Assembly (NCBI GenBank): GCA_008632985.1
Contig: QPGO01000023.1
Coordinates: forward strand, 279,266 to 343,265
Length of the DNA: 64,000 bases
DNA from: Psammoneis japonica
Taxonomy: Eukaryota
Direction of reading: 5' to 3'
The number at the start of each line of letters is the position of its first letter. Position 1 is the first letter of the stretch. The notes under the pieces are model-generated. The model had not been told where the DNA came from, did no database searches, and saw only the letters and a program-made list of their open reading frames with translations. Positions 16,744 through 64,000 of this stretch are shown here, piece after piece. Made by a program: the position numbers and the translations under genes.

Positions 16744-16988
16744 GCAAATGCACCTCACAGCAAAAGTCATGCTTGTCATCACACTGTCATTGGATCAGTC
16801 AGCATTTGCACACTTGAGCCCCAAATGTTTCACGCAGATGGGGCTGATCACTTTGTGCAGCAAGCATGAGCAAATGCACCTCACAGCAAAAGTCATGTTT
16901 GTCAGCAGGCCGTCATCGGATCAGCCAGCAATCATTTTGCACACTTGAGCCCCCCAAATGTTTGATGCAGACATGGGGTTGATCACTT
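16744..16988. repeat. Diverged tandem duplication of ~125 bp
   Basis: gcaaatgcacctcacagcaaaagtcatg...tgcacacttgagcccc...tgatcactt occurs twice (16744 and 16870). Confidence 0.85.
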
Positions 16989-18439: not shown

Positions 18440-19285
18440 CTGATTGCCACAGCATTTGCCACCACACAAATCAATGCCTTCTTTCAGGGGACACTGTTCA
18501 GACAGTGCCACCTGATGCAACTTGTGCCCAGCTCATGGTCAAAGGCCTTGAATTTGTCAATGACATTGAGGATTTTGATGAGGAAGGTCTCAAGCAACCA
18601 TTTGAAAACATCAATGACATTGAGGATTTTGATGAGGAAGGTCTCAAGCAACCATTTGAAAACATCAAAAAGCCTTCACAGGAGGAAATGTCACTGATCC
18701 AAACCCTTGCACTTCTGCAGGTGCAGTTGTTCCAACCCCTGCTTCTGTTGTTCTTGGTGCCAAAAGTGCAGTGCACAGCTGAAGGCAGCTCTGCAAGATG
18801 CCAAGTGTTGTGGCACACTTGGCAGAGAGCTCACAGCAGCCAACATGCATTGGAGTCCTGTTCTCAAGAATTTCCGGAGATCTCGGAAGGCTCCACAGTG
18901 TGAGCAAGACAATGATCAAGTTGTCCCCAAGATGTCCAAGTCTCCACCTGTTGTGAAGTGGGCCAAAGCATTTTGTGACCACATGCAGTGCACTGTTGGT
19001 TCTCAGAACATCCCACTGTCATGCATTGTTTGTGAGGAGGTGGCTGTGCCTGCCACTGCTCCGGCTCTTGCTGCAAACCAGCCACACTCTGATGAGTGAG
19101 CATGGGCCCCTTGAGGAAGGAAGAGAGCTGGTTGCTTGCTCCAACCACGCTTTTGCACTGTTTCACAAGAAGGACAGCACCACTCCATGCCGCATGCACA
19201 CAAAGAGGCCACTTGTGATGCTGTCTGTGCAGCTTCCATCAAGCGCTTCCAGTGCCGCAAGGAGGGCAGGAGTGCCGGGATCACA
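18440..19285 (+). mobile_element. Ty1/copia (diatom CoDi-type) gag remnant, hypermutated
   Basis: LGRELTAANMHW, VPKMSKSPPVVKWAKAF, IPLSCIVCEEVAVPATAPALAANQPHSDE and EATCDAVCAASIKRFQCRKEGRSA match the CoDi gag pattern as I recall it (IPLAYVIRE...QPHSEEHGS...YAASIKPYQRRKDGR), with Y and R changed to C. Confidence 0.75.
18557..18668. repeat. Perfect 54-bp tandem duplication inside gag
   Basis: tcaatgacattgaggattttgatgaggaaggtctcaagcaaccatttgaaaaca x2, identical. Confidence 0.95.
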
Positions 19286-19976
19286 CTGATGCTAACAAAG
19301 CTCCAAAATCATGATGTTCGAGTTTCAAAGAGCTGTGGGAAACAACAAATGCATGGAAACTTACAGTTTCTCTCTGTGAACAAGTTGAGGGGAGTGCAAT
19401 TGGCTGGTCTGAATGCTTTGTTGTGTTCAAGTTTCCATTGTCCTGGAGGGGGTTCAAGTTGGCGAGGTGACTTTGGCGATTTGTGCAGAAAACACACTGA
19501 GTCCTGCGCACACAGAATCTGGCCCACTTTTGCACCCGCACCATCTTGAGAGGCAAAAACTGCTGCGAGCATGACCAGTGCACACTGCATTTTGGCAGAC
19601 GATGAAAGCAAGAGCTCATTTTCTTGTGCCACCTGCTCCGACAAAGAAGGCAAGCCACCCCGCGGAGGAGAACAACATCAGCACTGTCACTTCGGGCAGC
19701 AACAAAGATTCCAAAACCTTGGAGCTGCACATTCAACATGGAACCTCAAGGCAAAAGCCTTGCTGCCAAGGAGATGACTGCTGCATCTGTTCCAACAGAG
19801 GATGAAAGCAGGGATCCACCCCGCCACCGCCTTTGCAACAACATGACCTGGACGGTTCAAGCAGAAGATTCCCAACAAGCAACCCAGCTGGTCATCATGC
19901 CCCAAAGGATGATGCAAAAGTGGGAAGCGCTGGCACGATGCCAGCAGCGGTTTTTGTGGCAAGGTGGGAGGGAAAA

Positions 19977-20148
19977 TGAAATGAGTTCTGAAAATGTGAG
20001 AATGAAGAAGCACACCTCGTCTCTCCAGAGAACGTTTTTATTTGTTTTCATTTTTCATTGTGAATTGCTCTGGTTTTTGGGTTGACAACAGCAGGTCGAA
20101 TGGTGTCAACACAAAATCGATGATGCTCATTTTCAGCGGCGACGGCCA
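19977..20148 (+). repeat. LTR-like dispersed repeat, copy 1 (TG...CA, preceded by a purine tract)
   Basis: Homologous to 62190-62347 (aatgaagaa.caca, ttgacaacagcaggtc, atgctcattttc.gcggcgacggcca). Preceded by the PPT-like tract aaggtgggagggaaaa and located downstream of the copia gag. Confidence 0.6.
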
Positions 20149-33500: not shown

Positions 33501-35122
33501 TGTGGGAGACGGTCAAGGGATGGGTTTTTGGACATGTTGCGCTGACAACATTGCAATGACAGACAAAGAACATTTAGAAAACAAGAGGAAGAAAAGCACC
33601 TCTTTGCGCAATCACCTCTCCTGTGGTGCACACCACACACCAGCCAGACCCCTTGTTGGCTTTGTGCACGACATGCTGAGCAGCACAACAAGCGAGTGTG
33701 GTGACACATGGAGCCTTGCACTGGCAGGTGACATGGTTTGTTGCAACAGCAAGTTCAACACTGTTGGGTCACTTTTTTCTTTCAAGGCAATCTTCTTTCA
33801 GATGAGGGGGGGAGGGCGCGAGAGACTTGCGAGGTGACGAGATGAGCAGAGACTTTCTTGGCAGTCGTCTCCTCTCAATCTTTTTCTTGTGATTCACTGT
33901 CACAGCTCAGGATGCCCAGATTCATTGGCTGTGAGTGTGCATGGTTTGTTCAGTAACTTTTCACATCATGCTGATGAGAGAGTGTTTGGTTTTTGACAAA
34001 AGATTTTTTTGTGAGATTGAAGGTTTGCAAGGGCCAGAGGGGCATCATGTGATTCTCCCCATTGATGGAAGAGTGAGAGCCTTGTGCATCATCCATTTGA
34101 TGCAAGCTGAGGGTTGAATGGGCCATGCTCAAATCATGTTGAGTTGTGGGCAGGGTGCATGGCAAGCTTTTGTGCAAGAGATTCAGTCCATTGTCTCCAT
34201 CCTCAAACAGCCCTCTTTGTCTTGTTGTTGCAGCAGATCATGTCTTGGCCATGACAGTGCCCTCCTGGAGTGCTCTCCGTTGCACCTGTGCAGTGGGTGT
34301 GCAGGTGCATTTTTGAAATGAAACCTGCACACTGATGAGCACAGATGCAAGAAAGCCACACAGCCACTGTGCGACATTGGGGGGGAGTGATGGCTGGCAA
34401 TGGGAAAGCTCTGATTTTCTGACAAATGGCAATGCTGGTTGTCCACACAATGCTTTGGTTGTGACAAGAAGAATCCAGAGAGCCAAGGGGGCACTGGCAG
34501 AGGCAGGCTGTGAAATGACTCTTGACTTGCTGACCCACAGCACCATTGCTTGGAGCGCATGATGTGTTCCTCAGCATTTGAATTAACCTGCAAATGATTT
34601 GATCTAGAAATGAGCTGGTGGTGTGCAGCTAATGAGCTTTTGTCTCCAGTGCCATGCCAAAACAGCAGGATCATTTGACATTTTACATGCTGGCTTTTTC
34701 AGCCAAGCAAGAGCTCTTTTGAGTCAAAATGGCACCAAGTGCAACAAAGCCCTGCAATTGCATCAAGAAAAAGCACTTTCTCTGCATCTGTCCAAAGGCA
34801 GCAAGAAGAGCAGCACAGAAACAGCTGGAGTGGCATGCAGCCACACTGGCTTGGCACTTCAGCTCAAAGGCAATTGTGACAAGGCTCTGGAGCACCTTTG
34901 CAAGGTTGTTGCTGCCAAAGAAACAATTCTCCAGGTGAGAAAAACCATGTGGATGTGCTGCATTGAGCCGCAACAACCTTGGGACCATTCTCAAGGACAA
35001 GCAGGTGCATTGAAGGAGGCTGCTGCATGTGCTGACTTGGTTTGTCAAGGCACATGAAATGTTTGAGCAGCTCCATGGTGCAAGCCACCAAAGTGCTGTG
35101 ACCAGGAGCTGCAACAATGTTG
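33501..35122 (+). pseudogene. Tandem unit A (~1.75 kb) ending in a kinesin-light-chain-type TPR remnant; continues at 39324-39453 after the LINE
   Basis: KCNKALQLHQEKAL, ACSHTGLALQLKGNCDKALEHL and RSCNNV are TPR motifs with Y changed to C/H. Colinear with 39454-40919. Confidence 0.75.
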
Positions 35123-38100
35123 AAAGAAAGACAAAATTCCACATTTTAAGTGCTGCTCGAACTCCACTCGCCACTAGCTCCAAGCCGGCCCACACTCCCA
35201 GTGCACCGAAGTGCGGCAGAAGTGGTTGTGGATTAGCCGACCGTGGCGTCACGAGATTGTGACGCCCATCCAAAGCAGCTGAGAACAGTCCGAGTGCCGT
35301 GCACGGCAAGTCGTTTTGCCTCTCTCATGCTTGTTTTAAAAAGTGATTTGTTCGTAGCCAACCAGTTATGAATCTGATGAGTCGACTGGTTTAGATGCTC
35401 TTCAACCGTGTCGAATGAATGACGCCGATCCTTTGCCAAATGTTCATTCTGTTGTTCGTGTGTCAACCTGAGTTCAGCCTCAGCAAGTCTGCGCTGTGCA
35501 GACTTCCACGTTTCTTTGTCGTGTCCGTGAAGAGCCTCATTGTGGTCATCCCATAAAGCCCACCATTCTTTCCACACAAAAGAACCAATGCTGGTCGCCC
35601 AATCACTTCTGCGTTTGTCAGTGTCACCTTCATCTGACCTCACGCGACGCTCAAGTACGTGAAACCGTTGGAGCTCATTCCACAGATGCGAAAAACGACC
35701 GTTGAAAATCTGTCGCCATCCGACAGCCTGTTGCAAAGCAGCCACTTGGCGCACACGGGGATGAATCGAAGCAACATTGAGAACTTCCTCATTGAACCAC
35801 GCTTCCAATCCTTGTGACAACAGATCCATCAAAGGAGGCATCGCATCTAATTCGTCACAGCGCCGACGTAAGCCTTGTAAAAATTTCCGACGCCACTGTG
35901 CCTGTCTCGGGCACCGAAGGACATGGTCTGACAGTGGAGACAACAGTCCAATCGCGCAGGATTGTGTCGATGTGCAATCTCATTCGCAGGCAAAATGTCC
36001 TGAACCAATTTAACGGTTCCAACTCTGTGTTTGACATGACAATGCATTAAAGTTGCATGTGTCTTCCAGTCGACTTGGTTGAAGACCTCTTCAGACCAAG
36101 AGTGCTTTTGCTTCATGTGCTCAATTAGCGCAAGAGATGCTGCTGCGTGTCGAATCTGGCTCTTGAAATTGGATGCAACAGTTCCTTTCTCGAGAAGAAA
36201 ATTGGCAGCGCAATGAGGCAAGCGTGGCACAGTTTCAGTGTCACCAAAATGTTTGCCCTGGAATGCTCCAGCCAAGTGATCAGCCCGAACGTTCAACCGC
36301 GCATCAAGAGGAAGTCGGGAAAGCGGAGTGTGGCGATCCTGGTGTCCTTTAACCCATTCAACGGCAATGAAAGTGCCACTCTTGTCTTGCACCCGGCATT
36401 CCTGTAAATCAAGAAAAGCATGAAGAATTTCGTTCACGACATCCCAATCCGGAGATGATGTGTGCGAGACATGGTGACGAAGAAGGAAATCCGTTTGGCC
36501 ATCCAAGGAGCATTCCTCACACTCAACGGGAGGAGGGGTGTTGAGATTTTGGACTGTGTTCACGAGGGAGCCATTGTCACACACAGACAAAAAGCCTTGC
36601 AAGAAAACCGCATCGCAAAATTCCATCAGCCGAAGTGTGAATCGAGACACAGACAATGGACCACAAGCTTCCGCTCGGTACGAAGTAGGGCGTTTCCCAA
36701 AAACCGGTCCAGAACAATCAACCAAAACAACTCCTTCAATCGTGAGTGTCCAACCAAAGGTGGCAGACTCGTGTGTGACGGAGCCGTCGCTGCCCATTTT
36801 TCCAATCGCAGTGCGAAGGGCATCAGCAATCTCAAACACGGAGCGGTGTGGGGCAATAAAATCGAAGAGGGATGCCTCCCATTTTGGTGGAGAACCGAGG
36901 AATGACTCAAAGTCAGGTGCACTTGGAAGAGCAAGCGGAGTGTCAAATCCCACTCGCTGAAAGGAGATTGTCCAATGTCCAGTGTCGACAGAATCAACGG
37001 AGACAGGAACAGCAGTAGAAGAAGGATGGGGAACCACTTCCAACGCACTCACCAAGTCAGCGCTCATGTTGGATGCCGGAAAAATTTCAAAACCCGTGAT
37101 CGAATGTAAAGGAACTGTTCAGTTGAAGAGAAATGTGCCGATGCCTGCATCCGCATTTGGTCCACTGGGACCACCCAATCCCCCAAGGGCTCCCGTAAGT
37201 CGCAGGCATCTGAATTGCAGAAAAGAAGGCACGCGCGTCGCCATTGTTTCCAGGCGGCTGGGGACGGATTTTCCTGGTCAACGAAATTAATCTGGCAGGT
37301 GCTGCTGGCTGGGGATGGTTGTCCCAGCACTTTAGATTCATCGAGACTGAGGCCATCAGGAAGCGTAACATCAGAAAGCATGAGAACCTGAAGAAACAGA
37401 CGGCAATAATTTGCCAAGCATGCTTGACGATTGGTGAATGTTCCTGACTCCAGGACCGCATCCATAATGTGTTGGTCGTCATTGCACTGAAGGGGAAGAA
37501 CTCCACTCTGATCCAGTTCCATTCTGCCATTAATTCGAGAGAGGAAGGGCCGAAGTGACATTAGCCATTTTGATTCAGAGTGGGGAAGAACCGCAGTGAC
37601 GTCATTGAGACAACTAATTCCTGTGCCCAGATGAAGTTGTGTCCACGAGACGGCAATGCGCAACAGTAAATTCGGCTGACCGTCACCTCGCCAGTGCTTA
37701 AGAAATTGGAGAGCTTGAGCCAATCCTTGTTCCACATCTAGGGAGCAAAAACCACCGCCTCCCAACGAGTGAGGGCCGTGCAGAAGATCCCGTTTCGTGT
37801 TACGGTTGTAGCCACATTTGGCAAAAATGGCTCTCATGGCTTTCCGTTGGATCTCGAGAAGTTGCTTGGGCGGGAAATGAGTGTTCGGGAGAACGCAGGT
37901 AACAGACGGAAGACAGCTTGCATGATGATGAGTCCAGGCATCGCTGCGGGTCATCGGACAATTTCGAACAAGAGCACTCTTGGAGTCGCTCTTTTCTTTA
38001 AGCTTGGAGCATTGAGTCTTCTGGGTTCCAACCGGTGACTTGTGGTGTCCCAAGGTCTTATGAGCCGAATGAGCTGACAGCTGAGTGCTGCAACAGGAGG

Positions 38101-39300
38101 AGGATCTGTCCGCCGTGCACATTTCCAATTCGAATTCATCGTGACAAGGTTTCAGGTGCGGCTCACCATCGTCGGTGAAAAGCCACTCGATGGCGTGGAA
38201 CGAGCATTTCGGCAATTCCAGTTCGTGACCAGCAGCATTGAGAAGATCGCACCACAGTTGAGTGTCGTGCTGCAGCTTCAATGCAAGATTGGCAGCCGAG
38301 GGTTGAGGAGATGCCCGAAAATCGTTCACCTGGGTAGATGTGTCGTCAACGTAACCACGTGAGAACATGCAAAGCTGAGTGGAACGGTCGGGAGATTCAA
38401 AGAACGCTCCACACGCCTTCTGGTCAAACAAATCAAATGATGAATTGCAAATCTGGTTCCAACACTGGGGAGAATTGCCACTGCCTTGACCGCTGCCATA
38501 AATCGGAAACTCAGCAGTGTGAGAGCACGAATCCTGGGCAAGTCCTGTTTCCGTTCAAAGCCAGTGTCGAGCCTCGTGGAGGGTTTCCGTGGCAGACGCC
38601 GTGACCTGCTCATCCATGCCAAGGCTCCTGCTCTGAACAGCACACACAGCCGGAAGGTTCCGATCACAACACGAGGTGCAATCATTGTCTCCTGACATGA
38701 GAGTCTTCCGTCCAGTCCTTGATGTCTCAAGCATGAGTTCTTCCAAAAACACCGGATCATTCGCACATTTGAATGCTCTCGTGCCACAGATCCCTGGATT
38801 ACACAGTCGTTCCTGTTCCATGTGTTGTGCCAAAGCTCACCACTTGACACTGCAGATGAGTTGAAAATCCGCCTCATAGATGTGTGTAACACGCAATCGG
38901 TGAATCTTGGCATTTCCCGGTTCCTTGAAAATCATGACATTCACGATGTCTTTCCAGCGGTCGCAGGAATGTCCCCACTTCAAAGCGCAGTTCAGCAAGT
39001 TCAAACGGATGTGGGTGAGGTTAGTTTGGACTGCACCCAAGGCGTCCTTCTCAGGAGTGGGATCTCCGCTGTCAAGAAAGGAGTCAGAAAACGAGTGAGA
39101 GGCGCACATCGCTTTCCAATGACCAAGATGCATGCCGGACTTGACAGAAGCAGCAGTCGACTCAGTCCAGTTTTTGATCTTGGCTTCCAATTCGTTTGCC
39201 GAGACTTGGTCAGCAATCGAAACTGGGGAACGCCGTCGAAGATGTTGCACAAACAATGAGGTGGCTTCATTTAAGGAATGAGTTTCATGCTCTCCATCGA
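35123..39300 (-). mobile_element. 5'-truncated non-LTR retrotransposon (RT + RNase H, Ambal-like)
   Basis: KIHRLRVTHIYEADF, DNDCTSCCDR and GYVDD (RT); SDGS..FGW..SYRAEACG and WVKGHQD..LNVRADHLA (RNase H). Flanked by an exact 23-bp TSD gaccaggagctgcaacaatgttg at 35100-35122 and 39301-39323. Confidence 0.93.
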
Positions 39301-39453
39301 GACCAGGAGCTGCAACAATGTTGGTTTTGTGTTGTTCAAAATGGGGGATCACACATGGAGGATCCAGCTGCATGCCAAAAGGCATGTTTGCCACTCATGA
39401 ATCCACTGACCTCTCAACAAAGACCAGTGCTGCCCATGCACTGCAGATTCACT

Positions 39454-40919
39454 GTGTGGGAGATGGTCAAGGGATGGCTTTTCTGACATGCTGCACTGAC
39501 AACATTGCAATGACAGACAAGAAGTTACAAGAAACAAGAGGAAGAAAAACTGAGCAGTGCAACAAGTGAGTGTGGTGACAAATGGTGCTTTGCACTGGCA
39601 GGTGCCAGCCATGGTTTGTTGCAACAGCAAGTTCAACACTTTTTGAGCCATTTTTTCTTTCAAGGCAATCTGCAAGAGATGGACAAGGTGATGTGATGAG
39701 CAGAAAACTTCTTGGCTGGTGCCTTGCAGCTCATTGCCACAGCTCAGGGTGCTCAGATCTGCTGGGTGTGAATGCATGCTGTCTGTCCATCCAGTGACTG
39801 AACATGTGCTGTTGAGAGTGTTGGGTTGTTTTCCACAGGAAGCATCCAAGGTTCTTGTGTGGGACTGAAGGTTTGCAAGAGCCAGAGGAGAGGGTCATGT
39901 GACTCTCCCCATTGATGGAAGAACAGGGGGAGTCTCATGCACCCATTTGATGCAAGACAAGGGCCACACATGGGCTGTGCACAAGTCATGTTGAGTTTTG
40001 TGGGTGGGGTGCACAATGAGCAAACTGGGGGGGGGGGCATCTTTTGCATGAAAGACTCAGTCCATTGCGTCCATCTTCAAGCAACCTCTTGTCTTGTTGT
40101 TTGGTTGCATGCTGGCTGGTGTCATTGGCACACTTTTTCAATTTTGCTTCACAATTCCCACAAGCTTGGTCCAAGGTGGACCTGTGCCTGGATTTGCCAG
40201 GGCATGTCTTGGCCATGATGGTGCCCTGCAATGCTCCATTGCACCTGTGCAGCGGGTGTGCACCAGTGCATTTTTGAACTGTGTGCTGTGTGCCAATGAG
40301 TGTGGATGCACAACACCAGAGAAAAAGTGGCAATGGGCGAAGCTCTGGTTTCTGACAAATGGCAATGTTGGTCATTCACACAATGCCCCAGCTGTTGCAA
40401 CAATCCAGAGTGCCAAGGCTCTGGCAGAGGCAGGCTGTGAAATGACTCTTGACTTCATCCACAGCACCATTGGAGCATTCATCTGGAAATGGGTTGGCGG
40501 TGCAGTTGATGAGCTTGTCCAATGTCATGCCAAAGCAGCAGGTCATTGGACATTTTACATGCTGAATTTTTCAGCCAAGTGGGGGCTCTGGCCTCTTGAA
40601 TGAAATGGCAAGTGCAACAAAGCCTTGAAATTGCACTGAGCAGTGCTTTCTCTGCATCTGTCCAAGTGCAGCAATGATGGCACAGAAGCAGCAAGAGTGC
40701 GCAGCCACACTGGCTTGGCACTTTGTCACAAAGGATGTTGCAACAAGTCTCTGGAGCACATTTGCACTTTGCAAGGCTGTTGATGCCAAAGAAACAACTC
40801 CAGGTGAAAAACATGTGGATGTGCTGCACTGAGCTGCAACAACCTCGGGCCTGTTTTTAAGGACAAGGGGGTGCATTGAAAGAGGCTGCCGCCTGTTCTG
40901 ACTGGGTTTGTCAAGGTGC
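39454..40919 (+). pseudogene. Tandem unit B (TPR remnant); continues at about 46938-47140 after the gypsy element
   Basis: Starts tgtgggagatggtcaaggg like 33501 and is colinear with unit A. gtttgtcaagg (40906) rejoins aaatgtttgagcagctccatgg (46949), as in the uninterrupted copy at 35040-35078. Confidence 0.8.
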
Positions 40920-41300
40920 TGCAGCATGCACTGTTGTGCAGGAAGAAATGTGCATGTTCACAGTTGCACATTTCACTGCATGTGTCAATTGCACCACAAT
41001 TTTGGATGTGTGCAAAGGACAGATAAATCACACAGATTTGATTTGATGTCAAAAATTGCAGGTGCAATTGATCAATGATGTTGACACACAAGATGCTGGC
41101 GTTGATTGCATCTGGATCTGTTGTCATGATCAGATGCTTCAAATGGCCTTTGGTCTGTAGAATCAGTGCAAATGCTTTGGGCCATTGAGAGCTCCTTTGG
41201 AGAAACTTAAAGTGGCAGAGCAAAAAATCTAATCTCACAATTTTCCACTTTTTGTGATTCGTTTTGCTTTTGTTTGCACTTGTTTTTCAAGCATGGTGCA
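40920..41300 (+). repeat. 5' LTR of the gypsy element
   Basis: Aligns end to end with 46543-46937 and has TG...CA termini. Exact ends are uncertain by a few bp. Confidence 0.85.
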
Positions 41301-43367
41301 TTGTGTGTGCTCACCACAGAAGGCAAAAACACAAAAATGAAGCTTTCACTTCATGCAGCTAACTCTGGGTCTTCTGTCAAGCAGGAAAAAATTGTTCTGG
41401 CACCTCTGGAGTCAATTTCTGAGCTGAAGTCACTCAAACCAATCCAGCACCTCATGATGGAGCAATGTCATCACCCTGAAGATGAGAAGAGTTGTGCACT
41501 CATGCAGTCAATGCCAAGCACTGCAACAAGCAGGGAGACCCCAAGCACACCAAGTTTTTGAAAACTTGTTGTCATTGCTTTGTTGGCCAGAACATCCAGG
41601 CAGAAGCAATCCAGTGAGTTCTGTCTGGCACGTGTGTTGTTGCAGGGAGACAATCTGCCAGTTTTTGAGAAGAGGGCTGTGAGTGATGAGTCCAAAGAAG
41701 ATGGAGGAGCCTGCAAAAAAAGCACAGCATTCTCAAGCCATGTTTTCCACAAGGGTGCACTTCAGAATCAGAAGTGACACCTGTGCTACAATCTCAAGAA
41801 GCCAGAGTCAATGAAGATCCAAGAAATTGCTGCTTTGGCTCAAGAAAAGTGAGAGAAGGTTTCAAGCTTTGCTCTCCCTTTTAGTCAAAGCAGCACTTAG
41901 ATGAAGATGAGCTCAAAGATCTTGTCTGCAACCTTGCACCTTGTTGATGGTGTTGTCAGTCAACCCTGCAAGGACCCAAGATCTTAGACCACACGCCTTT
42001 GCTGCTTTGACAGGTTGGTTGAGTTCTTGGAGCATTTTGAAGGTTGCTGAGGACACACTTGTTGACCAGACTCATGTCAAGTCTGATCCCAACACCAAGT
42101 CTGGGTTAAAGGCAAAGATGGGTCCCAGCATCGTGGTCCCAAAGTTGGTTGCCAGTCTGGCACCAAATGTTCTGAGTCCATGAAGCAGTGCAATCATTGC
42201 AAAAAGTCCACTCATGACATGTGGGTCAATGCTGTGTTGTCAAGAAATTGGCAAAGGAGTGCCAAGAGAACACTGGACAAAACTCAAAAAGGCAACGTTC
42301 AAATGGCAATTGCATGTGGTCATGTGTGACACTAAGAGTGCCTCTCAAAAGGAAGAGTTGAATGCCATGGTCACTCAAGCAGTCATCAAAACTCTCAAGA
42401 CAAGTTCATTGGCAAATGACAAAAGCACAAGGGAGAAAATTCTGATGCTGATGCACTCAGTGAAGAAGACTGCCAATTTGAGCAAATGATGCATGGCAAC
42501 TCTGAGGAATGACTGGCTCGCTCCTCCTGTCAAGGAGTCTTGCATGATGCTGGACATTGGGAAGTCCAGAAAAAGGTCAAAGCAATTCATGCCAGTCCAG
42601 CAGTCATTGCTCACATCAGCGCCTCTTTGGGAGGAGAGAAAACAAGCCTCTCTGCATGTTCTTCTCAACAGCAGAGCATCGTCAACCACAATTTTGTGCA
42701 AGTTCATGCCAAAAGCTGAGAACTGAGAAATCTGCCACCAAAACTTGGGAAACCAAATGCAGGCTCTTCACAAAACTGACGGTTGGGGTGAGGTGCAGTT
42801 CTCATTGCATGAATTTGACAAGCATGAGTTGATTGAGAAGATGGCACATGCTGATGCACCCCTTCTTCTTCATGTCAATGTGATGTGATCATGGGACATG
42901 ACCCAACAAGCTGTCTTGAAGTCACACCTGACTTTGCAAATGATGAAATCAGGTGGGAAGATGCAACCACACCAATGAAGAATGCGGGTGCACTCTTTGA
43001 TGCCAATGTCTTCAAGCTGATTGCCAATCACATTGAAGACTCACATGCTTTGAATGGTCTTGACAATGACAGGATCAACAGGATCCTCAATGCCAACTGT
43101 CATGCCAGCTGCCAAGAGTCTCAATGAATCTTTTTGATGTTGGTTCCTCCTCAGGTGTGTGGAAAGCAAAACCAGATGACCTTGCATTGAAGCTGGGCGC
43201 AACTCTGCATCATGCAAGACCACATCCTGTGCCACAGGCCTTGGAGGCAACCACCATTCAGAAGAAAGTGGAAAGACTCTGTAAGATGGGAGTCTCGAGA
43301 AGAAAAATGAGCAATTCTGAATTCTGAGCAGCCAAAACCTTTGTTCACCCCAAGAAAAAATGGTTGA

Positions 43368-44164
43368 GACCTGTTGCACTCATGGCAGAGGGGTGCAATT
43401 CAGGTGTGATTTTTGGGTGCAAAAACATGCACTTGCACCCCTCTGAAAAAAATTGCAGCCAACAAATTGGCCACCAAACACATGTTGTTTCTGCCTGCGC
43501 AGTGTTTTGTGAAAAAAAGACTCGTCATTGTCCATGATGGCAACAAACATCAGAGTGTCAAACAACGGCAACCATCAATCAACAACAAACTTCAATCAAC
43601 AAGAGATGCAAAAACTTGTTTCTGGGGAGCTGTTGTGGTGCATTCAGGAAAAAAATGGTGGCAAAAGACAGTGAGATTGAAGTCAACAGACAACAAAATG
43701 AAGGCAAGTTCATGCCCTTTCAGAAGAAAAACATGTCACAGCATGGTTGCTGAAACCTTGCCTTTGAATGCAACAATGACACACAATGTCAATCACATCA
43801 TTGCAAGTCAAGTGGACTTGTCAGAGCACAATGATTTGACATGTGCAAGGTCACAACAGAGCAAATGAATGCCACAGCATTCGATGCGGTCATTTGAGTG
43901 TTCAGCTTCATGTGCGTGCAAGTTGATTGAAATCAGAGATGCAAAGTTGTCTCTGGCCAGCTGTCAACAATTGTTCAGGAGCATGTGTTTGATGAATGTG
44001 CTGTCACTTGCAGAATTGCAAATGTCAAATTTCACACCCTTCTTGGAGTCTGCTTGTGTGAAAATCACCCGCAGTTTTTGGGGTGTGAATTCGTGCAACG
44101 CACCTTTTTGCACCCCCAAATTGCACTTAAAATTGCACCCCAATTTCCATGAGTGCAACGGGTC
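43368..44164. mobile_element. Non-autonomous DNA transposon (MITE, PIF/Harbinger-like) inserted in the gypsy RT
   Basis: Imperfect ~55-bp TIRs (gacctgttgcactcatgg... / ...ccatgagtgcaacgggtc) with 3-bp tga on both sides. Removing it rejoins the RT motif PKK..G to FLPDFFELNRR. Confidence 0.85.
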
Positions 44165-46542
44165 TGAGCTTGGTTCCTGCCTGACTTTTTTGAGCTGAAC
44201 AGGAGACTGAAGTGCACTTGGCATCCTTTGCTCAATGTTCAGGATGTGCTGCAGAAACTCAAAGGTTTCATGCATGCAACGTCAGTCGATTTGAACATGG
44301 GATGTCATCACATCAAAGTGGCATGACATGCACATTGTTTGCACATGATTGTGATGCCGTGGGGCAAACATGAACACTGCAAACTCCCTGTGGAAATTTG
44401 TGGATTGCCTGACAATCTTCTAGAGCACATGAGCAAATTCATGGCAAGTTTAGAGTTTGTCAGAACTTGCATTGATGACACACCATGCCTGACAAAAGGC
44501 GACTTCAAATGTCATCTCCAGAAACTCAAGGAGACATTTGCACAGCTCAAACAAGCTGATCTGAAGGTTGGTGTCAAGAAAACTTTTTTGCCTGGCCTGG
44601 CGCAGACTGTCTGGTTTTTCACATCACCCAAAATGGTGTTGCGCCAATCCCTGAAAAAGTGGAGGCCATTCAAGCAATTGCACCTCCCCCAAAACGTGCA
44701 GAGAATTGCATTTCTTTGTTGGCATGATCAACTGTTGTTGAGACATGTGGCATCAACAACATCATGCACTTGCTCCTCTGGCCAAACTCACCTCAACAAA
44801 GATCAAGTGGCAGCAGACAAGCACAGAATAAAAAGCCTTCAAAAATGTCAATTGAGCTGTGTCAAAGGATGCATTGTTGTCATGGCCAAATTTCAATGAA
44901 CCCTTTAAGATGTGTGCTGATCCAAGCAACTCTCAATTGGGAGTGATCACATCACAGAACAACCAACCCATTGTCTTCTGTGGACACAAGCCAAGTGGAG
45001 TGCAGACGCGATGTGCCACAATGGAAAAAGAACTTCTGTCTGTCATGGAAACTCTTGAGGAGTTCTGCATGTCACAGTGCTTGGCCAACATGTGAATGAT
45101 GTGTTTGCAGATCATAAAACCTTGCTCACAAGAACTTTGCTGCAGAAGGAGTCATGCCATTGGCATCTGACAATCAAAGAATGTGCAACCCCAAAATGAC
45201 TTTTACAGAGGGCAAGGCCAGTGTCACGCTGCAGATGGTGCAGTCAGCCAAGAACTTTCTGTGCAGAAAACAGAAGAGCCTGTGAAAAACCTCAGCACCA
45301 AAGAACCAGCTGAGAAGGTTGCACCTGAATCCCATGACAAAGTTTTTCTGTCAACATGCAAAGTTCTTGACATTGAACAAAGACAGAGGAAGACATCCTC
45401 TCTAAATTGTCAAACAATGCAGCATGTTGTGTGAAGGCTTTTTGTGGAGGCGAGCAAGTGAAATCAAATGCTCACATGTCACAAGGAAAAAACTGTTGCG
45501 CCAAAGTCATTGCAAAAGACAGCAACAGATTGGAGTCATGCATGCCTTCTGCACCCTGGCACAAATGGAGCTGAAGAAACAATCTCACAACACCTGTGGT
45601 GGTGGTCCACCTTTGTGTGAAGACACAAGAAAATGTCAAAATGTGAGACATGCTAGAAATTCAAGAAGAAACAAAAGAAATGTGGACACTCACCTCCTGA
45701 GTGCATGGAATCAGTGCCACGGGAAAGACCATGTGTGCACCTCATTGTGGACCACAAAAAGTGGGTTGCAAAAGCACAAACAGGAGCTGCTGGTCCACAA
45801 GTGTTTGACAATGATTGATCCAGCATCAGGTTGGTTTGAAATGGTGGAAATTCCAAATGAGAAATCCACAACTGTTGCGCTGGAATGTCAGAGAGAACAT
45901 GGCTGAATGGGTGCCCTTGGCCACAGTTGATTGTTTGTGACCATGGAAGGGAGTTCATTGGACGCCAACTCAGAACTGTGCTCAAAGATGACAGCGGCAT
46001 TGAGTGCAAGCTCACAACCACAAAAAATCCACAAGCTGATGCCACATTTGAGCACATGCATCAAGTGTTGGGCAGTGTGCCACATGCACTTGATTTGCAA
46101 AATGCACCTCCAGACACAGAAAATCCATTTTCTGCAATGCTGTCAGCAACAGCCTTTGCAGCAGTGCAATCAACATGTCACGCTGCTGTGAAAGCTGTGC
46201 CAGGACAATTGGTCTTCAACAGAGACATGACATTTGATGTCCAAGATGTCAACAACTGGAAATTTGTTCAGAGATGAAAACAAGAAACAACAAATAAAAA
46301 TGATGCTGAAGAGAATGCTTGACACAGCCACTTCACACACACCCACAGGGCAGGAGACAAAATGTCACTCAAGAAAGACTCTAAAAAACTGGAGCAGCCT
46401 TGTGCTGAACATTGTGCAATCACAACTGCACACACTGACAGCACAGAACAAATCAAACACAGTGATGTCATTGATGCTGTCAATGCCCACATCAAACAAT
46501 CCCATTTGACAGATGACTCTAATGTGCAACTGGGGAGGTGAA

Positions 46543-46937
46543 TGCAGTGTGCACTGTTGTGCAGGAAGAAACACACACACTTGTGATTGCACATTGTCAC
46601 ACTTGTCAATTGTGCCACAATCATGGATGCACATGAAGGACAGATCAGTCACACAGATTTTGTTGCACGTCAAAAATTGCAGATGCAATCAATCAATGAT
46701 GTTGACACATGAGATGTCAAAGTTGATTGCATCCAGACAATCTGTTGTCATGATCCACTGTTGGATGCTCTGAGTGGCCTTTGGTCTGCAGACAGCCACA
46801 GCACACCAGATGCTTCAGGCCATTGAAAAAACTCCTTTTTATGAACTCAAAATGGCAGAGCAAAATCCAATCTCACAATTTTCCACTTTTTGTGATTTGC
46901 TCTGCTTTTTTTGCACTTGTTCTTTGAACACAGTGCA
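46543..46937 (+). repeat. 3' LTR of the gypsy element
   Basis: Follows the PPT and is homologous to 40920-41300. Confidence 0.85.
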
Positions 46938-49339
46938 AAGGCATGTGCAAATGTTTGAGCAGCTCCATGGGGTGCAAACCACCAAAAGTGCTGTGACCAG
47001 CTGCAACAACATCAGTTTTGTGTTGTTCAAAATGGGAGACAACATGGAGGATCCAGCTGCATGCCAACAAGAGTGTTGACCACCACTCATGAATGTGCAC
47101 TCTCAGCAAAGACCAGCACTGCCTGAGCACTGCAGATTCCTTCCACAATGCTGGGAAGGCCACACAGGCCTTTGGGAGCTGCGTTTTGGGAAAGGATCAT
47201 CCCCAAGCCATGCACAGTCAAACAGCACCATTGCTTTGGTGTTGTGTCAAAAATGAAAAGCTGAAAAGATCTGTGTGGGGGAGAGCTGGGTGCTGACCAT
47301 TCAGACACACTGGCACCCTGGAGCGCAATTTGCTTTGTTGAAAGTCACTGGAATTGAACAATTCTCACACATCTGTTGCTTCTCACCATCTGTTGAGTGC
47401 CATCACAAGACAAAGAAGCCGTGCAAAACAAAAAGTCAAGTTGCCTCCCGCCACTGGGGTTGCTGAAGAAGGCAAGAGAACTGCAATCTCTGTGATTTTG
47501 AGCGCAACTCTGAGCACACCTCCAGAGATGATTCAGAAATGGGTGAGTGTGATCTGTTTGATTTTTTTGTTGATGTGCTCATCCAAAAGACAGAGCAAAC
47601 ATGTGCACCCAGAAAAAATTGACCGTGAAGAGGGTGAGGAGATCTGCGAGGCAGGAATCTCCATTGGTGCCGTGACAGGAACACATGGCATGGTGCAGTG
47701 CAAGAGAAATGACAACAGTCTGTTGTTGACTTCTCTGAAAGCAGTTCACTTCCAGATGAGTCAGGCATTTGTCCAGAAGAAGAAAATTGCACTTGGCAAG
47801 AGATTCGCACGAGCCACAAAATGCTGCTGACACATCGACGGCGATGATGGCAGAGCAACACAGGGTCATCGACTCCAAACTGCTGTCTGTCAAGAGCGAG
47901 ACGTGAGTGCCACTTCCAAGAGAAATTGAAACAAAATGTACTCAAGCTAAGTCCTCGTTATGATAGAATCGTCTTCGTTGAAGTGTTGGTCCTCGTTGGC
48001 GCTTGTTTGCGTGTAGGTTTGTCCGTTTGGGTCAATGGCAGTGGCGCTCGTTTTCATTCATGACACCAGGGAGTTGCATGAAATGTCAAAACAGAATGTC
48101 AGAGAGACCTGCCTGCACATGAGTGCCGCCACAGTCTGCACGATGCTGCGAAAGTTTGTGCACTTGCCACCAAAACGCTGCTCGCACTTTTTGCCAGGGG
48201 ACGTGCCACAGACACACAATGTTGCATTTGGCTGCAGGACAAATCCTGTGTTTTTGGGGCTCTGTTTGATTTGACAAAATGTCGAAATTCCATGGAAGGT
48301 TTCTCAACAATTGCCTTTTTTCCCAACCAGTGCTGAGACAAAATGCCCCCAGAAATGCAGGTGGTTGTGTCTTCACCAGACCCCGCCAAAATTTCTTGTT
48401 GAGAAGACAACCCACTGGATGGAATGAGAATGTTTAAATGATGTTGCACAGTGCGTGAAAAATGACAACCTGCACTCACTCAATTGGGTTGGCATGGTGA
48501 CATCAAGCACTGAAATGAACGACAAAACGGTGCGATAATCGAGGAGGGATTTTGGGGGGGTTAGTGACTCCAAGAGAGGGGGGGAGGGGAGAGGAGAAAG
48601 AAGGAGGAGGAGGAGAGAAAGGAAGGAGAGAGGAAGGGGTTGCGAGGGCAGCGAGCTTGATCTAAAAGGCAGAAGTGGTTTGAAGAGCCATCGTCAATTC
48701 TTTCTCCCGTTTCACCACCCGATGTGTCAGATCTCCGGGTGCTCCCATGTTGAAGTAATTTGGTGTGGTGACACAGATCGAGACATTGTAGTGTTGAAGT
48801 ATCTCTAGTATGAATTTTACGTAGAAATCTACGCAATTCAGGAGTTTCCCTCCGACACCACACAAAAAATCGACCATGAGAGCTGCAAGAGCCGGTAGTC
48901 GAAATTGTCGCCGTCACTTGTGATACTGTTGTGACAACAAAGCACGCATTAAAACTCTCTCTGATGAATGAATATACGAAAAGAGATGTATGAAAAACGT
49001 GAAAAATGGATAAGAAATGCTTGGTACTTTTTCCATTTTTTGAACTCGTCTCTCACCGCTCTTGCGTTGCAATTTCTGTTCGTTCTTGACAGATTGAAGA
49101 GCCCTCCTTTAAGCATTGATCATTCATGGCGTCTCTCATGCTGATGCTTTGTATTGTTGCCTTTTTGGCTTCAGCCGAGTGTTCACCCTTCGTTGACGAG
49201 GCTTTAGAAGTTGTTGGAGTGGTGGCTTTTCAGGGTTCATTGGAATTGCTGAGTGCGGCGGTACCACAAGCGCTGTTGACCGGGATATGATGGAATGAAT
49301 GTCACATGTTGGTTGTGGGTGTGGTTTGTTTTGGCTGGT

Positions 49340-57159: not shown

Positions 57160-57941
57160 TGTTCTCTGCTTACAATCGTCATGAGCTCGCAGATGGGAGT
57201 GGTTCACTCTTCACTCTTCAGCTTTCAGCTGTTGCCGACGATAAGGTTGACGAATTGAATTCAGTGAAGTGAAGGTGTAAGTTGAAAGCGAGTGCGTGGT
57301 GAAGTGGTGAAGGTCGCGCCTTCAAATCCTCAGAGTCTGCCTTGAAACTTGTGACGTGGAAGATTAATCAGAATGCAAGAAAAAACTGCAGGGGGTGTCT
57401 ACTCCTGGGTCATTCCGCCACCATATCATCATAAATGTTTATTGCACTCCATCGGAAAAAGGTTGGACGAATGACTGTATATAATTATTGTAATGTCTCC
57501 GATGACAACGAGTCAAAAACGAGAATCCTGTCGGTCGGACATTTTGAAAGAAACATTTAACAGAAGATCATTGTTCAAATCTATCTTAATCGCCCTTTCA
57601 CCACATAAATGTTTAGGTCCCCCTAAGTATTGTTATGTTTTGTGATCGTGGGTTCGAGGTCGCGGATGGATTGCAAACGTCCGAGCTGAAGCCTTTTCTT
57701 GCCCATTATTTAACTCTTTAATCATTGTTTATGACATTTGTGAAATGACTTAAGGCGTCATTGTTTAACGATTAATTGAATTGCTGTTAAATGATTGGGG
57801 AGGAGAAGTTGGAAGAACACAAAGCATTCGGCTTCGCATCCCCATTCCATTTCGAACGACCGGCTCTGCAACACTCCCACAAAAAATCCAGACACCTAAA
57901 AAGTTACCAACTATCAACAAGTACTACTCTTTCCAGCCCCG

Positions 57942-60001
57942 ATGAGGTTGTCACTATTCATCCTCGCCTTATCCCTGGTTCTGTCGCCCTGCACCTCGCA
58001 GCCAGAGCTCATCAGCAGCTTCGACAGCTGCACCGCGATGAACAACTACTACATCAACAAGGTGCTACCGCTCATCGGTCCATACGGCCTCAACTCCCGC
58101 AACGCCTACACACCGACCCGAAATCCAGAGTTTGCCGGTAAGCCAGGCCGTCCGGGCGGGCCCGCTGGGCTGAAGCTCTACAAGCCTTTCGAAGACCCAA
58201 AAGTCATCGAAAAGGGAAACATCACCGAAGGCAACTCGTTCATCGACGATGAAGATGACGAAGAAGGTAAGGAGGAGGGCAAGGACTTCTCGGGCACCAA
58301 TGTCCAGGTAAAGGGCGTCGACGAGGCCGACATTGTCAAGACTGATGGCGAGATGGTGTACGCGATCTCGGGCTCAAAGTTAACCGTCATCAAGGTCCTC
58401 AACGAGGGTGGGGGCGGAAGAGTCACTGGAACAATCCAACTACCTACCCGCCCGGACGACATGCTGCTCGAGAAGAACTTTGTCGTCGTCATTGGTCGCG
58501 ACCGTAACTACAAACGCAAGGTCCACCGACGGTACAGACGCCATCCGTCGCGTGGTGAGCAGTCGACTGTTTTGTACCAAATCCGTATCAAGAACTACAA
58601 GCCGAAGCTGATTTCAACGCTTCATCTTGAAGGGTCATACGTCAAGGCGCGTGAAACGGACGGCGTTGCACGAATCGTGATCAAATTCAACCCTTTGCAA
58701 TCCATCTGGCTGTATTACCCCAACCGCAAGTACAAGAAGGATCAGACACTTAAGTGGAACCAGGAGATCATCGAATACTCGAGGGCTGGGAATTGGCTGC
58801 CGACCTACAAGCTTCAAAAGGGAAAGCAAACACAGGTTGGCGTGTACGGATCATGCAGTGACCTGTACCATTCGCCAGATGTGTTCTCAGGCTTTTCGAT
58901 GCTCTTAGTGGTGACGCTGCCGCTCAACAAACTCATGACTCCAACGTCATCAAACTCAATTATCTCCGATGCCGAGGCTTTGTATGTGACCAAGCAGTCG
59001 ATGTACGTGACGACCAACGAATTCCAATTTGGTAATGTGCCCAACAGCGCCAACCGTTGGGGTCCGAACTACCAGACACGTATCCACCGATTTAGCCTGA
59101 GCGAAACGGGGGCAACATATAGAGCATCTGGTCAAATCACGGTAAGCGAGCGTGCTTCACTGCCCGAATAGATTTCAACGCGTGTCTTTACTCAAGTCTT
59201 GTCTTTGTTTGCTGCTTATAGGGTAGCGTCCTCAACCGATTCTCTATGCACGAGAACGACGGCCACTTCTTCATTGCGTCGACCGTCGGGGCCTCTTGGT
59301 GGACGGGGCGGTCGCTCAGCGAGAGCAGGGTCACTTCGTTCAAGATCGACGACGACAAGGGCTTGCTGAAGCCTGTGGGCCTTGTTGAAGACCTAGGTGT
59401 CGGCGAGCGCATCTTTGCGGTGCGATATCATAAGGACATTGCATACGTTGTGACGTTTAGGGAGACGGATCCGCTCTACATCATCGACCTGGCAAATCCA
59501 AAGAAGCTTGAAGTCAAGGGAGAGCTCAAGATCCCTGGCTTCAGCACGTACCTTCACAGAGTGGAGGATGGAAGAGTCCTCGGAGTCGGAAAGGACGTGG
59601 TAAATGGCAGGACCTTAGGCACCAAGGTGTCGCTATTCGACGTGAGCGACGAAACAAACCCGAAGGAACTGTCAGTGTGGACGCTCCAAGGAAGCTACTC
59701 CGAGGCGGAGTGGGACAACCGGGCATTCTTGTACTGGAAAAAATTGAAACTCGCCATCATGCCGCTTGTGATCTACGGACGACGTAGAACGTTTTATGGC
59801 GCCATTGTTCTCCAAATTACCGACAAGAAGATCGTTGAGATCGGCCGTATCCAGCACATCATTCCTGGAAATCGTTACCATCCGCGAATCCTGAGAAACC
59901 TCGTGATAGGAAAATTCTTGTGGTCCATGTCGTCAGAGCAGCTCCAAATCAACGAGCTGGAAAACATCGAAAAGAAGAGGGGCGCTGTTGGCATTGCGTA
60001 A
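57942..60001 (+). CDS. Secreted beta-propeller domain protein (Beta_propel/COG4880-like), 659 aa, 2 exons
   Basis: Signal peptide; FSGTNVQVKGVDEADIVKTDG, GERIFAVRY, YVVTFRETDPLYIIDL, GELKIPGFSTYLH and KVSLFDVSD. Intron 59142-59221 (GTAAGC...TAG) is in frame. Confidence 0.92.
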
Positions 60002-62189: not shown

Positions 62190-62347
62190 TGATGCACTCA
62201 CTGAGAATGTGACAATGAAGAAACACATTTCGGGTCCAGATAATCTTTTCATTTGTTTTCATTATGAATCGGTTTTTGGTTTGACAACAGCAGGTCCAAT
62301 GGCATCAACACAAAATGAATAATGCTCATTTTCGGCGGCGACGGCCA
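62190..62347 (+). repeat. LTR-like dispersed repeat, copy 2
   Basis: Homologous to 19977-20148. Ends gacggcca, followed by ttggatgcc. Confidence 0.6.
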
Positions 62348-62402
62348 TTGGATGCCAAGCGATTGTTGAAACATCCGCGACTTTCGCAGAGAAGACAGTG
62401 CC

Positions 62403-64000
62403 GTGGATCCGAACAATCCACAAGCACCCGCTCAACAAGCGGCACCACCTGCTCAACCTGGAGCACAAGCACCTCAAGTGCCAGTTCCACCAGCACAAGA
62501 GCTGCACAATAAGCGCAGCCATCAGCAATCCCAGGTCAAGGAGGCGAGGGAGCAGGAGCACCGCCACCGGTCTGTCCTGTGCCACCGCCTCCGAATCAAC
62601 TGGCGCAACAACCTGGAGGAGGTCAACCAGCAGCACAAGTGCTGCCCATTCAACCACCTCCACCAAATCCCACCACGTGTCAAGAATGGATGCTGTGGAA
62701 CAGCAAACAAAGACCCGCACAATGGCGATTGCACCGAAGCCGGTCTGGACTTTGCTGCAGCCATCGCAGGAGCCTTGAGATGCACCCCTCAACCACTTGC
62801 GGCACAAGTCACAGCCACTTCACACTTCAGGACATGACATGCCAATGGCACAAGTGAAACTTGTGACCAATGCCACTGACCGGATGATCCAGGAGTGATC
62901 AGCGTGTTCCACCAAATTGCTGCCTGCCCGCAAACCATCGTTGGAAACGCACCACCCTGGGACAGAAATGCTTGCACCATCCGTGGTGACATCACACAAG
63001 GACAGTGTCATGTCGTGCCTTGGGAGGTTGCCAATCATCACATTGTTGCGGCAGCTGGAACCTGGGTCCCCATGGATGCAGAGATGGAAAATCACCCAGC
63101 GCAAAACCCTGAAGGCCCAATTGGCTGCATGCTGCCCAACAATGCCCGGAGCAGCAGAGGTGCAAACATGCGCCACTGCTTTGCTCCCTTTCAACTGCGT
63201 GAGTTTGCTGCTCCCAGTCACCTTGCCACCCAAAGATGTCTTCTGGCATGCACACGGCACTGCCCAGGTGAACAATCAGGTGCAGCAGCTCCGCCCCTTG
63301 CCAGACTGCCTTGAGGTGGCATGCATGAGGCACGGTGCTCAACAAGCTTCAGCGGCAGCTCAGCCATTGCCCCAACTGCTGCAATCACCCAACAAAGCAC
63401 TCCGCTGATTCTTCAACCACATGGCAGACATGGATCTCCTGGGCCATGCCAGGGAAGCCAACCCAACCTTGCCGCAGATCCTTCCGGTCGTTGGGGCCCT
63501 CGACAACCTTGCTGCAGAACAACATCAAACTTGACTGGATGCGCAGGCAAGGGCCCTGGCTGCTGCTGGGGAAAAGATGCCCACACAAACCTTTGGCATG
63601 TGCGGGGTCCTTAAGCTCATGCGACTGACCCAACTGCTGCACAAAGCACAACTCCTGCCATTTGTGGGTCAACCTTGCCGCTGCGCCCAAAATCACGTGT
63701 GTCAAGGTCATGCAGAGCGCATTCGACACCTTAAAGAGTGCACTGGGGACACACTTCCTGACATGTGCCATGGTGCCACTCGTGTCAAAACTCATGAACC
63801 TTGCACTCTTTTGCTGGTTTGTTTTTAGAATGGCTTCAATCCGTGATGCAGGTGTTCTTTTTTCAATGGTGGCACCTTTCACTCACTTTGGATTGGTTGG
63901 GCACCACATGGAGACTGTTTTTGGAACCAGATTTGGAGCCATTTTGGTTTTGGAGCCAACCTTGCTGTCAGAGTCTTGATGTTTTTTGTGTTGTGGACGT
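62403..64000 (+). mobile_element. Hypermutated domain IV: degenerate ORF1-like sequence of a probable retroelement, running off the window
   Basis: TA-depleted. Pro/Gln/Ala-rich start, then VQTCATALLPFNCVSLLLPVTLPPKDVF..LRPLPDCLEVAC, which resembles a repetitive diatom ORF1-type family as I recall it. Element class is not established. Confidence 0.45.

Follow-up and report, generated by a model that had tools for sequence, protein, structure and literature searches.

What made the two ends of a single retrotransposon diverge by trading CA for TG, and on which molecule was the trade made? The question is raised by a stretch of Psammoneis japonica DNA of 64,000 nucleotides (contig QPGO01000023.1, positions 279,266 to 343,265; the window, below, means this whole stretch), in which positions 40920-46930 hold what its sequence identifies as an old, dead Ty3/gypsy-type retrotransposon bounded by long terminal repeats (LTRs). 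A sequence-only reading of the locus had claimed that the two LTRs differ by reciprocal CA/TG swaps, that each swap is one independent transition in each copy from an ancestral TA or CG, and that the change was made in chromosomal double-stranded DNA after insertion, not by editing of RNA or cDNA. The analysis reported here makes it very probable that, once the element had inserted, two transition processes, each specific to one dinucleotide, converted the island around it in the form of chromosomal double-stranded DNA.

Under this explanation, one process would turn TpA into TpG or CpA by an A:T to G:C transition at TA on whichever strand is hit, proceeding fastest at RTAY, at an intermediate rate where the flanks are mixed and slowest at YTAR (R, purine; Y, pyrimidine). 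The other would turn CpG into TpG or CpA through the usual decay of methylated CpG. Both strands would be affected because TA, like CG, is self-complementary, and for both processes TG and CA would be dead ends. Since each site would be resolved independently and at random in each LTR, about half of the converted sites should be discordant, CA in one LTR facing TG in its partner.

Reciprocal CA/TG swaps between the LTRs

The two LTRs of a retrotransposon are identical at insertion, and for this reason the pair serves as a built-in control. By blastn, 40920-41300 matched 46543-46937 with 74.6% identity over 401 columns. A MAFFT alignment gave 393 LTR columns with 291 matches, 78 mismatches (64 transitions and 14 transversions) and 24 gap columns, so that 78 of 369 aligned columns differ. 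Eighteen CA/TG swaps were found, ten with TG in the 5' LTR and eight with CA, and together they take up 36 of the 78 mismatches. When the same numbers of transitions and transversions were placed at random columns in 2000 permutations, the swaps averaged 2.59 and reached a maximum of 8. By greedy pairing, CA/TG accounted for 16 of the 27 adjacent double mismatches, and every other type for at most 2. The strings quoted in the sequence-only reading are present and cover 8 of the 18 swaps, and the alignment and swap fraction that it had proposed as a check bear out its description of the pair.

The 5' LTR contains 4 TA, 2 CG, 50 TG and 42 CA, and the 3' LTR 1, 1, 48 and 54, respectively. From the dinucleotide ratios of normal DNA, about 19.6 TA and 15 CG are predicted for each LTR, and full conversion after insertion with random strand choice would leave about 15.5 discordant sites. 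The 18 observed fit this prediction, so the element entered essentially unconverted and was converted in place. Elsewhere in the pair, TA stands opposite CA at 3 sites, CG stands opposite TG at 2, and 64 sites are concordant as CA/CA or TG/TG, a count that includes ancestral CA and TG. The swaps fall into 13 runs versus 9.9 expected, and this runs test on the 18 gave no sign of same-strand joint conversion of neighbours.

Ancestral dinucleotides and the regional extent of conversion

The coding part of the element was polarised against intact protein homologues, using four homologues with at least two aligned and agreeing. One of its relatives, the 1497-residue protein P0272 (Pfam domains RVP, RVT_1, RT_RNaseH, Integrase_H2C2 and rve), could be followed by tblastn in order from gag to integrase over 41619-46493, through several frameshifts and stops. 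The parts of the element are the following.

40920..41293, + strand: 5' LTR, paired by blastn and MAFFT with 46543-46930; starts with TG and ends with CA
41619..41846, + strand: gag-like remnant (tblastn, P0272 residues 88-163, E 1.3e-4)
42882..43094, + strand: aspartic protease remnant (tblastn, P0272 residues 544-606, the Pfam RVP region of P0272)
43082..43357, + strand: N-terminal part of the reverse transcriptase (RT) (tblastn, P0272 residues 626-711)
43358..44173, + strand: interruption of the RT, about 816 bp (tblastn gap, P0272 passing from residue 711 to 717 and the window from 43357 to 44174)
44174..44587, + strand: RT core (tblastn, P0272 residues 717-854, 46% identity)
44676..46493, + strand: RNase H and integrase remnant, frameshifted and with stops (tblastn, P0272 residues 884-1491)
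46531..46542, + strand: purine-rich tract adjoining the 3' LTR, read from the sequence as a putative polypurine tract
46543..46930, + strand: 3' LTR (blastn and MAFFT); starts with TG and ends with CA

At the 42 aligned positions where P0272 has Tyr, the element has no Tyr at all, Cys at 11 and His at 10. Ten positions with conserved Tyr now carry TGY (4), CAY (3), TGG (1) or AGY (2) and none encodes Tyr, while the 20 with conserved Arg carry CAN (8), TGN (3), retained AGR (3) or other codons (6), with CGN at none. Control residues were retained at 13 of 16 positions for Phe, 16 of 21 for Asp and 7 of 7 for His. Within the RT core, alignment with homologues shows that the YxDD box now reads C-I-D-D and that K-Y-E-Y now reads K-H-E-H. 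Because conserved Tyr and Arg codons have become TGY/CAY and CAN/TGN, TA and CG must both have been ancestral, and each gave rise to both TG and CA within one copy. This agrees with the earlier claim of one independent transition per copy from TA or CG, to which 7 of the 10 Tyr codons, 11 of the 20 Arg codons and the LTR sites with TA facing CA or CG facing TG all speak. The possibility that every swapped site had once been CG, named in the sequence-only reading as fatal to it, is not what was found, for the Tyr codons and the TA opposite CA point to TA as an ancestor too.

A more direct view of the ancestral state is given by sequencing run X1, which contains 0.77 of the sampled words; no RNA data set is listed as containing them. 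The contigs of X1, aligned to the window at 80% likeness, yielded 1221 pieces that are deep over the LTRs and pol and thereby indicate a multi-copy family. A consensus of loose contig ends has CG at a site that reads TG in the 5' LTR and CA in the 3' LTR. Among the 40 listed of 861 variants from this run, none falls at a swap site. Over window positions 39000-48500, contig depth stands at about 40-50 times the flank level over the LTRs and parts of pol, pointing to many copies, and the loose ends are rich in CG and TA. As some copies thus retain CG and TA, conversion is specific to a copy or a place and not family-wide.

The change extends well beyond the element. Composition in the window is bimodal in both 1-kb and 250-bp bins, and the borders of the altered islands are sharp at 250-bp resolution. 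Five islands (approximately 1-8250, 16001-20000, 33501-35000, 39251-47750 and 62251-64000), covering 24 kb of the 64 kb, have observed-to-expected (o/e) ratios of about 0.0-0.16 for TA and about 0.04-0.35 for CG. The corresponding values are 0.59 and 0.99 in the genic stretches, which carry carbamoyl-phosphate synthase, MCM, a major facilitator superfamily transporter and a beta-propeller protein. Across the islands, 79 TA are found versus 966 expected (about 92% lost) and 236 CG versus 1360 (about 83% lost). The summed loss of TA and CG is 2010 and the summed gain of TG and CA is 2055, divided between TG (+1029) and CA (+1026). The element has o/e ratios of 0.05 for TA, 0.14 for CG, 2.02 for TG and 1.79 for CA, with gains of 278 TG and 254 CA. 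The G+C content is 0.479 in the islands versus 0.473 in normal DNA, unchanged because the two conversions cancel.

The element sits in a 15-kb transposon island with the following parts.

33501..35000, no strand: diverged duplicate of the left flank (blastn, 33501-35050 with 39455-40916), depleted of TA and CG
35001..39250, - strand: remnant of a second retroelement; its two long open reading frames (ORFs; P0275, P0276) carry an RT-like box (G-Y-V-D-D) and an RNase H-like motif, both recognised by eye
39251..47750, no strand: island block in which TA and CG are nearly lost, holding the element with 1.7 kb and 0.8 kb of flank
47751..48750, no strand: right edge of the island, depleted of TA and partly of CG, with normal composition from about 48751

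In the block 39251-47750, each 250 bp contains 0-4 TA and 0-4 CG, versus about 7-12 and 8-23 in normal DNA. The island flanks outside the element are as depleted of TA and CG as the element itself, and swaps are not a property of LTRs. Three flank repeat pairs within islands show 18, 16 and 4 swaps versus 3.1, 3.3 and 0.39 expected, and a tandem pair at 7163-7722, in the island 1-8250, shows 8 versus 1.25. Besides the duplicate of the left flank, a blastn self-comparison of the window also pairs 39308-39450 with 46999-47139. In normal DNA, four repeat pairs gave 2, 2, 1 and 0 swaps versus 1.1, 1.0, 0.24 and 0.33 expected. Conversion is therefore regional and not confined to the retroelement. 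Blocks depleted of both TA and CG are, wherever this could be checked, all repeated or derived from a multi-copy family. Taken together, the equally converted flanks, the swaps in flank repeats and the equal gains of TG and CA uphold the claim of action on chromosomal double-stranded DNA after insertion, and the strand symmetry, the converted flanks and the swaps in non-LTR repeats bear out its argument against ADAR- or APOBEC-style editing of RNA or cDNA.

Separability of the two tracks and the flank rule

The losses of TA and CG are two separable processes. In the block 35001-39250, 46 TA remain versus 153 expected (70% lost) and 217 CG versus 269 (19% lost), while the block 39251-47750, which holds the element, has 41 CG versus 293 expected. 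Seven 1-kb bins are poor in TA with CG above 0.6, and none is poor in CG with normal TA. As CG loss is seen only on top of TA loss, the CG track looks slower or more restricted, and the block 35001-39250 looks like an early stage of conversion. The CG loss in the element's block is read as a second, independent process. The earlier picture of a single process working on both strands therefore holds in one half: outcomes are symmetric between strands, but the process is split in two by the block 35001-39250.

The TA that survive are mostly in YTAR. Of 79 surviving TA in the islands, 47 stand in YTAR (CTAA/TTAG 26, TTAA 16, CTAG 5) and 1 in RTAY, versus 227 and 419 of 1349 in normal DNA.

An independent data set is provided by relatives of the RT. 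A phmmer search with the ORF 44327-44899 gave 323 proteins at E<=1e-3, and the RT matches include proteins with zero Tyr and about 10% Cys plus His. By using one such Tyr-less RT protein (P0160), 80 loci (L001-L080) were retrieved from metagenome contigs, 3 from microbial mat metagenomes. Their o/e ratios range over 0.02-0.70 for TA and 0.30-0.89 for CG. The TA ratio shows no significant correlation with that of CG (rho 0.14, p 0.23), and correlates negatively with TG/CA (rho -0.90) and with G+C (rho -0.81). Fifteen TA-poor copies were then each aligned to the best of nine TA-rich copies. The 1293 TA of the TA-rich copies became TG in 596 cases and CA in 455, with 8% kept, and of 769 CG 64% were kept, 98 became TG and 93 CA. 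Changes from CG to TG or CA toward the TA-poor copies number 191, versus 316 in the reverse comparison, which indicates that the TA-hypermutated copies carry no extra CG loss. Repeat pairs within single contigs show 12, 6, 5 and 3 swaps versus 1.9, 0.59, 0.55 and 0.04 expected.

The same flanks are spared in this family, where the share of TA that was kept is 0.26 for CTAA/TTAG, 0.21 for TTAA and 0.19 for CTAG, and 0.00-0.03 for the other seven classes; by trinucleotide, A to G changes reach 0.57 in TAC and TAT, 0.32 in TAA and 0.30 in TAG. In a 96% identical repeat pair of locus L054, 6 of the 7 TA surviving in both copies are YTAR, and swaps make up 3 of the 8 differences. That the window and the metagenome family share this flank preference speaks for a single mechanism of defined specificity.

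A search of the metagenome contigs with a degenerate LTR pattern gave 0 matches. Among the loci, L038:4001-5750 is depleted of both TA and CG, like the element's block, and L001 and L006 have sharp TA borders inside single contigs.

Competing explanations, known systems and significance

Several points weigh against conversion of the island in place by two processes. The LTR mismatches that are not swaps (42 of 78) make the element old in the ordinary sense as well, and some of the CG loss may be a matter of age alone. The target-site duplication cannot be read clearly: as they stand, the 5 bases flanking the two LTRs mismatch, and a 4-base match appears only when an LTR end is shifted by 2, all in converted DNA, so that the LTRs are not proven to come from a single insertion. 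Whether they do, or form the recombinant pair that the sequence-only reading had named as a second way to refute it, is unimportant to the conclusion, because the flanks and the non-LTR repeats show swaps as well and the strands are symmetric. In the expected counts, the composition of the ancestral transposon is approximated by that of genic DNA in the window. Direct polarisation covers a single one of the 18 swaps, which a 30-letter consensus of 5 contigs marks as CG-ancestral, and the split between TA and CG at the remaining sites is drawn from composition. The 80 metagenome loci were fetched with peptides of a mutated copy, so the sample leans to mutated copies, which moreover share ancestry, and their counts are not independent events. 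In this family the outcome is also asymmetric (TG 596 vs CA 455 on the RT-coding strand, p 1.5e-5, with TG exceeding CA in 11 of 15 copies), whereas the window is symmetric, and the excess may betray a contribution tied to one strand, for example through transcription. Loci L077, L078 and L079 have TG:CA of about 2:1. What the sequences themselves establish is which way the changes ran, that TA and CG were both ancestral, that conversion came after insertion, struck whole regions and treated the strands alike, and that two processes can be told apart; the chemistry is a matter of inference. An ADAT/TadA-like enzyme deaminating adenine in DNA would be the likeliest cause of the TA track, and deamination of 5-methylcytosine the likeliest cause of the CG track.

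Decay of methylated CpG alone, with every swapped site once CG, has next to no chance of being the whole explanation. The CG ratio of 0.14 in the element, the conserved Arg positions now CAN/TGN with CGN at 0 and the CG ancestor of the directly polarised swap would suit it, but TA is even more depleted (0.05), Tyr is found at 0 of 42 P0272 Tyr positions with Cys or His at 21, TA faces CA at 3 LTR sites, the CG deficit of 1124 accounts for about half of the 2055 TG and CA gained, and the block 35001-39250 has lost TA with CG near normal. Editing of RNA or cDNA before integration by ADAR- or APOBEC-type enzymes, with LTRs of two edited elements later joined by recombination, is extremely improbable. 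It could draw on the preference of ADARs for a 5' U (Mettrop et al., bioRxiv 10.64898/2026.01.13.699255), on the edited retroelements described in vertebrates (PMC4866542) and on a target-site duplication that, being unreadable, leaves room for LTR recombination. However, the flanking non-LTR DNA is converted to the same degree, right up to the LTR ends and past them, non-LTR repeat pairs show swaps too, outcomes within one copy are equal (Cys 11 vs His 10; TG +278 vs CA +254), and in the alga Bigelowiella natans the change arises de novo in a chromosomal single-copy region (10.64898/2026.01.13.699255).

The remaining rivals keep the conversion in the chromosome and differ in agent or trigger. 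Products of thymine oxidation mispair, and T at TpA is modified in some protists. The T of TpA might thus be oxidised in place to 5-hydroxymethyl- or 5-formyl-uracil by a TET/JBP-type enzyme, pair with G and change to C, and since TA is self-complementary the sequence cannot separate A to G from T to C on the opposite strand. This route is unlikely: nothing in the present data points to T modification, and the authors of the only experimental study, that on B. natans, prefer deamination of adenine and identified an ADAT2-like candidate (10.64898/2026.01.13.699255). That duplication itself triggers mutation, as in the RIP (repeat-induced point mutation) of fungi, is quite unlikely, although the checkable blocks depleted of TA and CG are all repeated or multi-copy and the RIP analogy was drawn for B. 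natans as well (10.64898/2026.01.13.699255); the direction is reversed (RIP takes CpA to TpA), G+C stays at 0.479 vs 0.473, the loose-end consensus of run X1 reveals family copies still with CG and TA, and the hypermutable viral region of B. natans is single copy (10.64898/2026.01.13.699255). One bifunctional deaminase acting on A in TpA and C in CpG as a single process is very unlikely. The two depletions do coincide over 24 kb with CG-only depletion in 0 bins, and 10.64898/2026.01.13.699255 cites ADAT2 enzymes with activity on A as well as C in DNA, but TA is lost with normal CG in the block 35001-39250 and in 7 one-kb bins, the two ratios are uncorrelated in the 80 loci, CG changes number 191 versus 316 in reverse, and A to G or T to C changes made up 230 of the 231 new mutations in the hypermutable B. 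natans regions.

The closest known relative of the TA track described here was reported for B. natans. Of 302 new nuclear mutations in its mutation-accumulation lines, 231 lay within two regions of integrated viral DNA; with a single exception these were A to G or T to C changes, every one of them at TpA. A measured de novo rate about 1000-fold above background belongs to the description of this type. According to the main text of the same preprint, the genome holds 124 clusters of 1-kb windows poor in TpA and rich in CpA and TpG, RT and DDE domains are enriched among TpA-poor genes, and DNA adenine deamination by an ADAT2-like enzyme is proposed (Mettrop et al., 10.64898/2026.01.13.699255). 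The TA track in P. japonica is a process of this kind: both involve A:T to G:C change at TpA with TpG and CpA as products, a chromosomal target, and discrete regions of foreign or mobile DNA. The present case differs in being saturated (TA o/e 0.03-0.1 vs 0.45 in the B. natans giant-virus region), in affecting an LTR retrotransposon island, in the CpG loss of most blocks and in the RTAY/YTAR rule. The "almost no G:C to A:T" reported for B. natans compares with 217 CG versus 269 expected in the block 35001-39250, and with 41 versus 293 in the element's block.

Word counts for CpG, LTR, retrotransposon, context, flanking and trinucleotide are all 0 in the main text of the B. natans preprint, and the available text of a chromatin preprint (10.1101/2025.03.17.643675) contains nothing on B. 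natans cytosine methylation. A full-text literature search found a process from TpA to TpG/CpA in the B. natans preprint only. What the present locus adds to the main text of that preprint is the CpG track, the natural experiment offered by the LTRs, the flank rule and an end state of saturation.

Other systems resemble the locus in part. RIP in ascomycetes is likewise regional and genome-defence-like, makes transitions at one dinucleotide on either strand, wrecks transposon reading frames and diverges copies; as described in PMC2621366, it takes CpA/TpG to TpA and lowers G+C, whereas in the window TpA is destroyed (79 vs 966 expected), CpA and TpG are produced and G+C is 0.48. Methylated-CpG decay in vertebrates, plants and some fungi shares the change of CG to TG or CA on both strands and, as seen here from a genic CG o/e of 0.99, the restriction to transposon DNA, but it explains only 1124 of the 2010 conversions, about 56%, and never removes TA. 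APOBEC3 and ADAR editing is also a deaminase-driven, dinucleotide-biased hypermutation of LTR elements (e.g., PMC4866542), but those edits lie on one strand, are confined to the element and are identical in both LTRs, while the changes here are symmetric, run into the flanks and differ between the LTRs.

The LTR pair offers proof of TpA hypermutation on integrated DNA that is independent of the mutation-accumulation lines and comes from sequence alone. The phenomenon, known from two viral insertions in a single alga, is extended to retrotransposon islands in the window and to a metagenome retroelement family, and the order RTAY > mixed > YTAR is a testable fingerprint of the enzyme. No natural enzyme that deaminates adenine in genomic DNA is known to be in use, and a native one would interest builders of base editors. 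In genomes of this kind LTR divergence is unfit for dating insertions, since the process itself produced no fewer than 36 of the 78 differences.

A wider proposal can be put forward, for which we see the case as evenly balanced. In at least two further eukaryotes besides B. natans, a natural A:T-to-G:C system at TpA, preferring RTAY and sparing YTAR, would mark whole transposon islands. It would precede CpG-methylation decay, act independently of it, and together with it drive mobile DNA to a dead end of TG and CA only, devoid of Tyr codons and of TAA and TAG stops. Such a system would be the mirror image of RIP, and its enzyme a native deaminase of adenine in DNA whose motif can be read.

Conversion also affects annotation. 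Pfam searches with 10 ORFs of the element itself gave no RT or integrase match at E<=0.1, an instance of how domain searches miss converted elements, and word-indexed protein searches with two integrase ORFs gave no match at E<=1e-3. By tblastn, no second pol copy was found within the window, and Pfam found nothing in the ORFs of 35001-39250. In the RT interruption at 43358-44173, homologues have only 5 residues, and TA and CG are as scarce there as in the remaining element; the piece may be a nested insertion or a duplication. Long stop-free stretches are seen in all six frames across 40500-47300, with 33 ORFs of at least 80 amino acids over 6.8 kb, and the translations are rich in Cys and His and without Tyr. 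These long false ORFs exist because TAA and TAG were lost, and gene callers would report false genes across such DNA.

Elsewhere in the window, the islands 1-8250, 16001-20000 and 62251-64000 carry no recognisable protein domain except an ankyrin-repeat match in the ORF 5092-5445. A two-part gene at 57900-59998 (+ strand) encodes a bacterial-type beta-propeller protein (Pfam PF09826). Its nearest named relative is a red-algal transcript with 56% identity, the next tier is bacterial at about 30%, and the gene may have been transferred.

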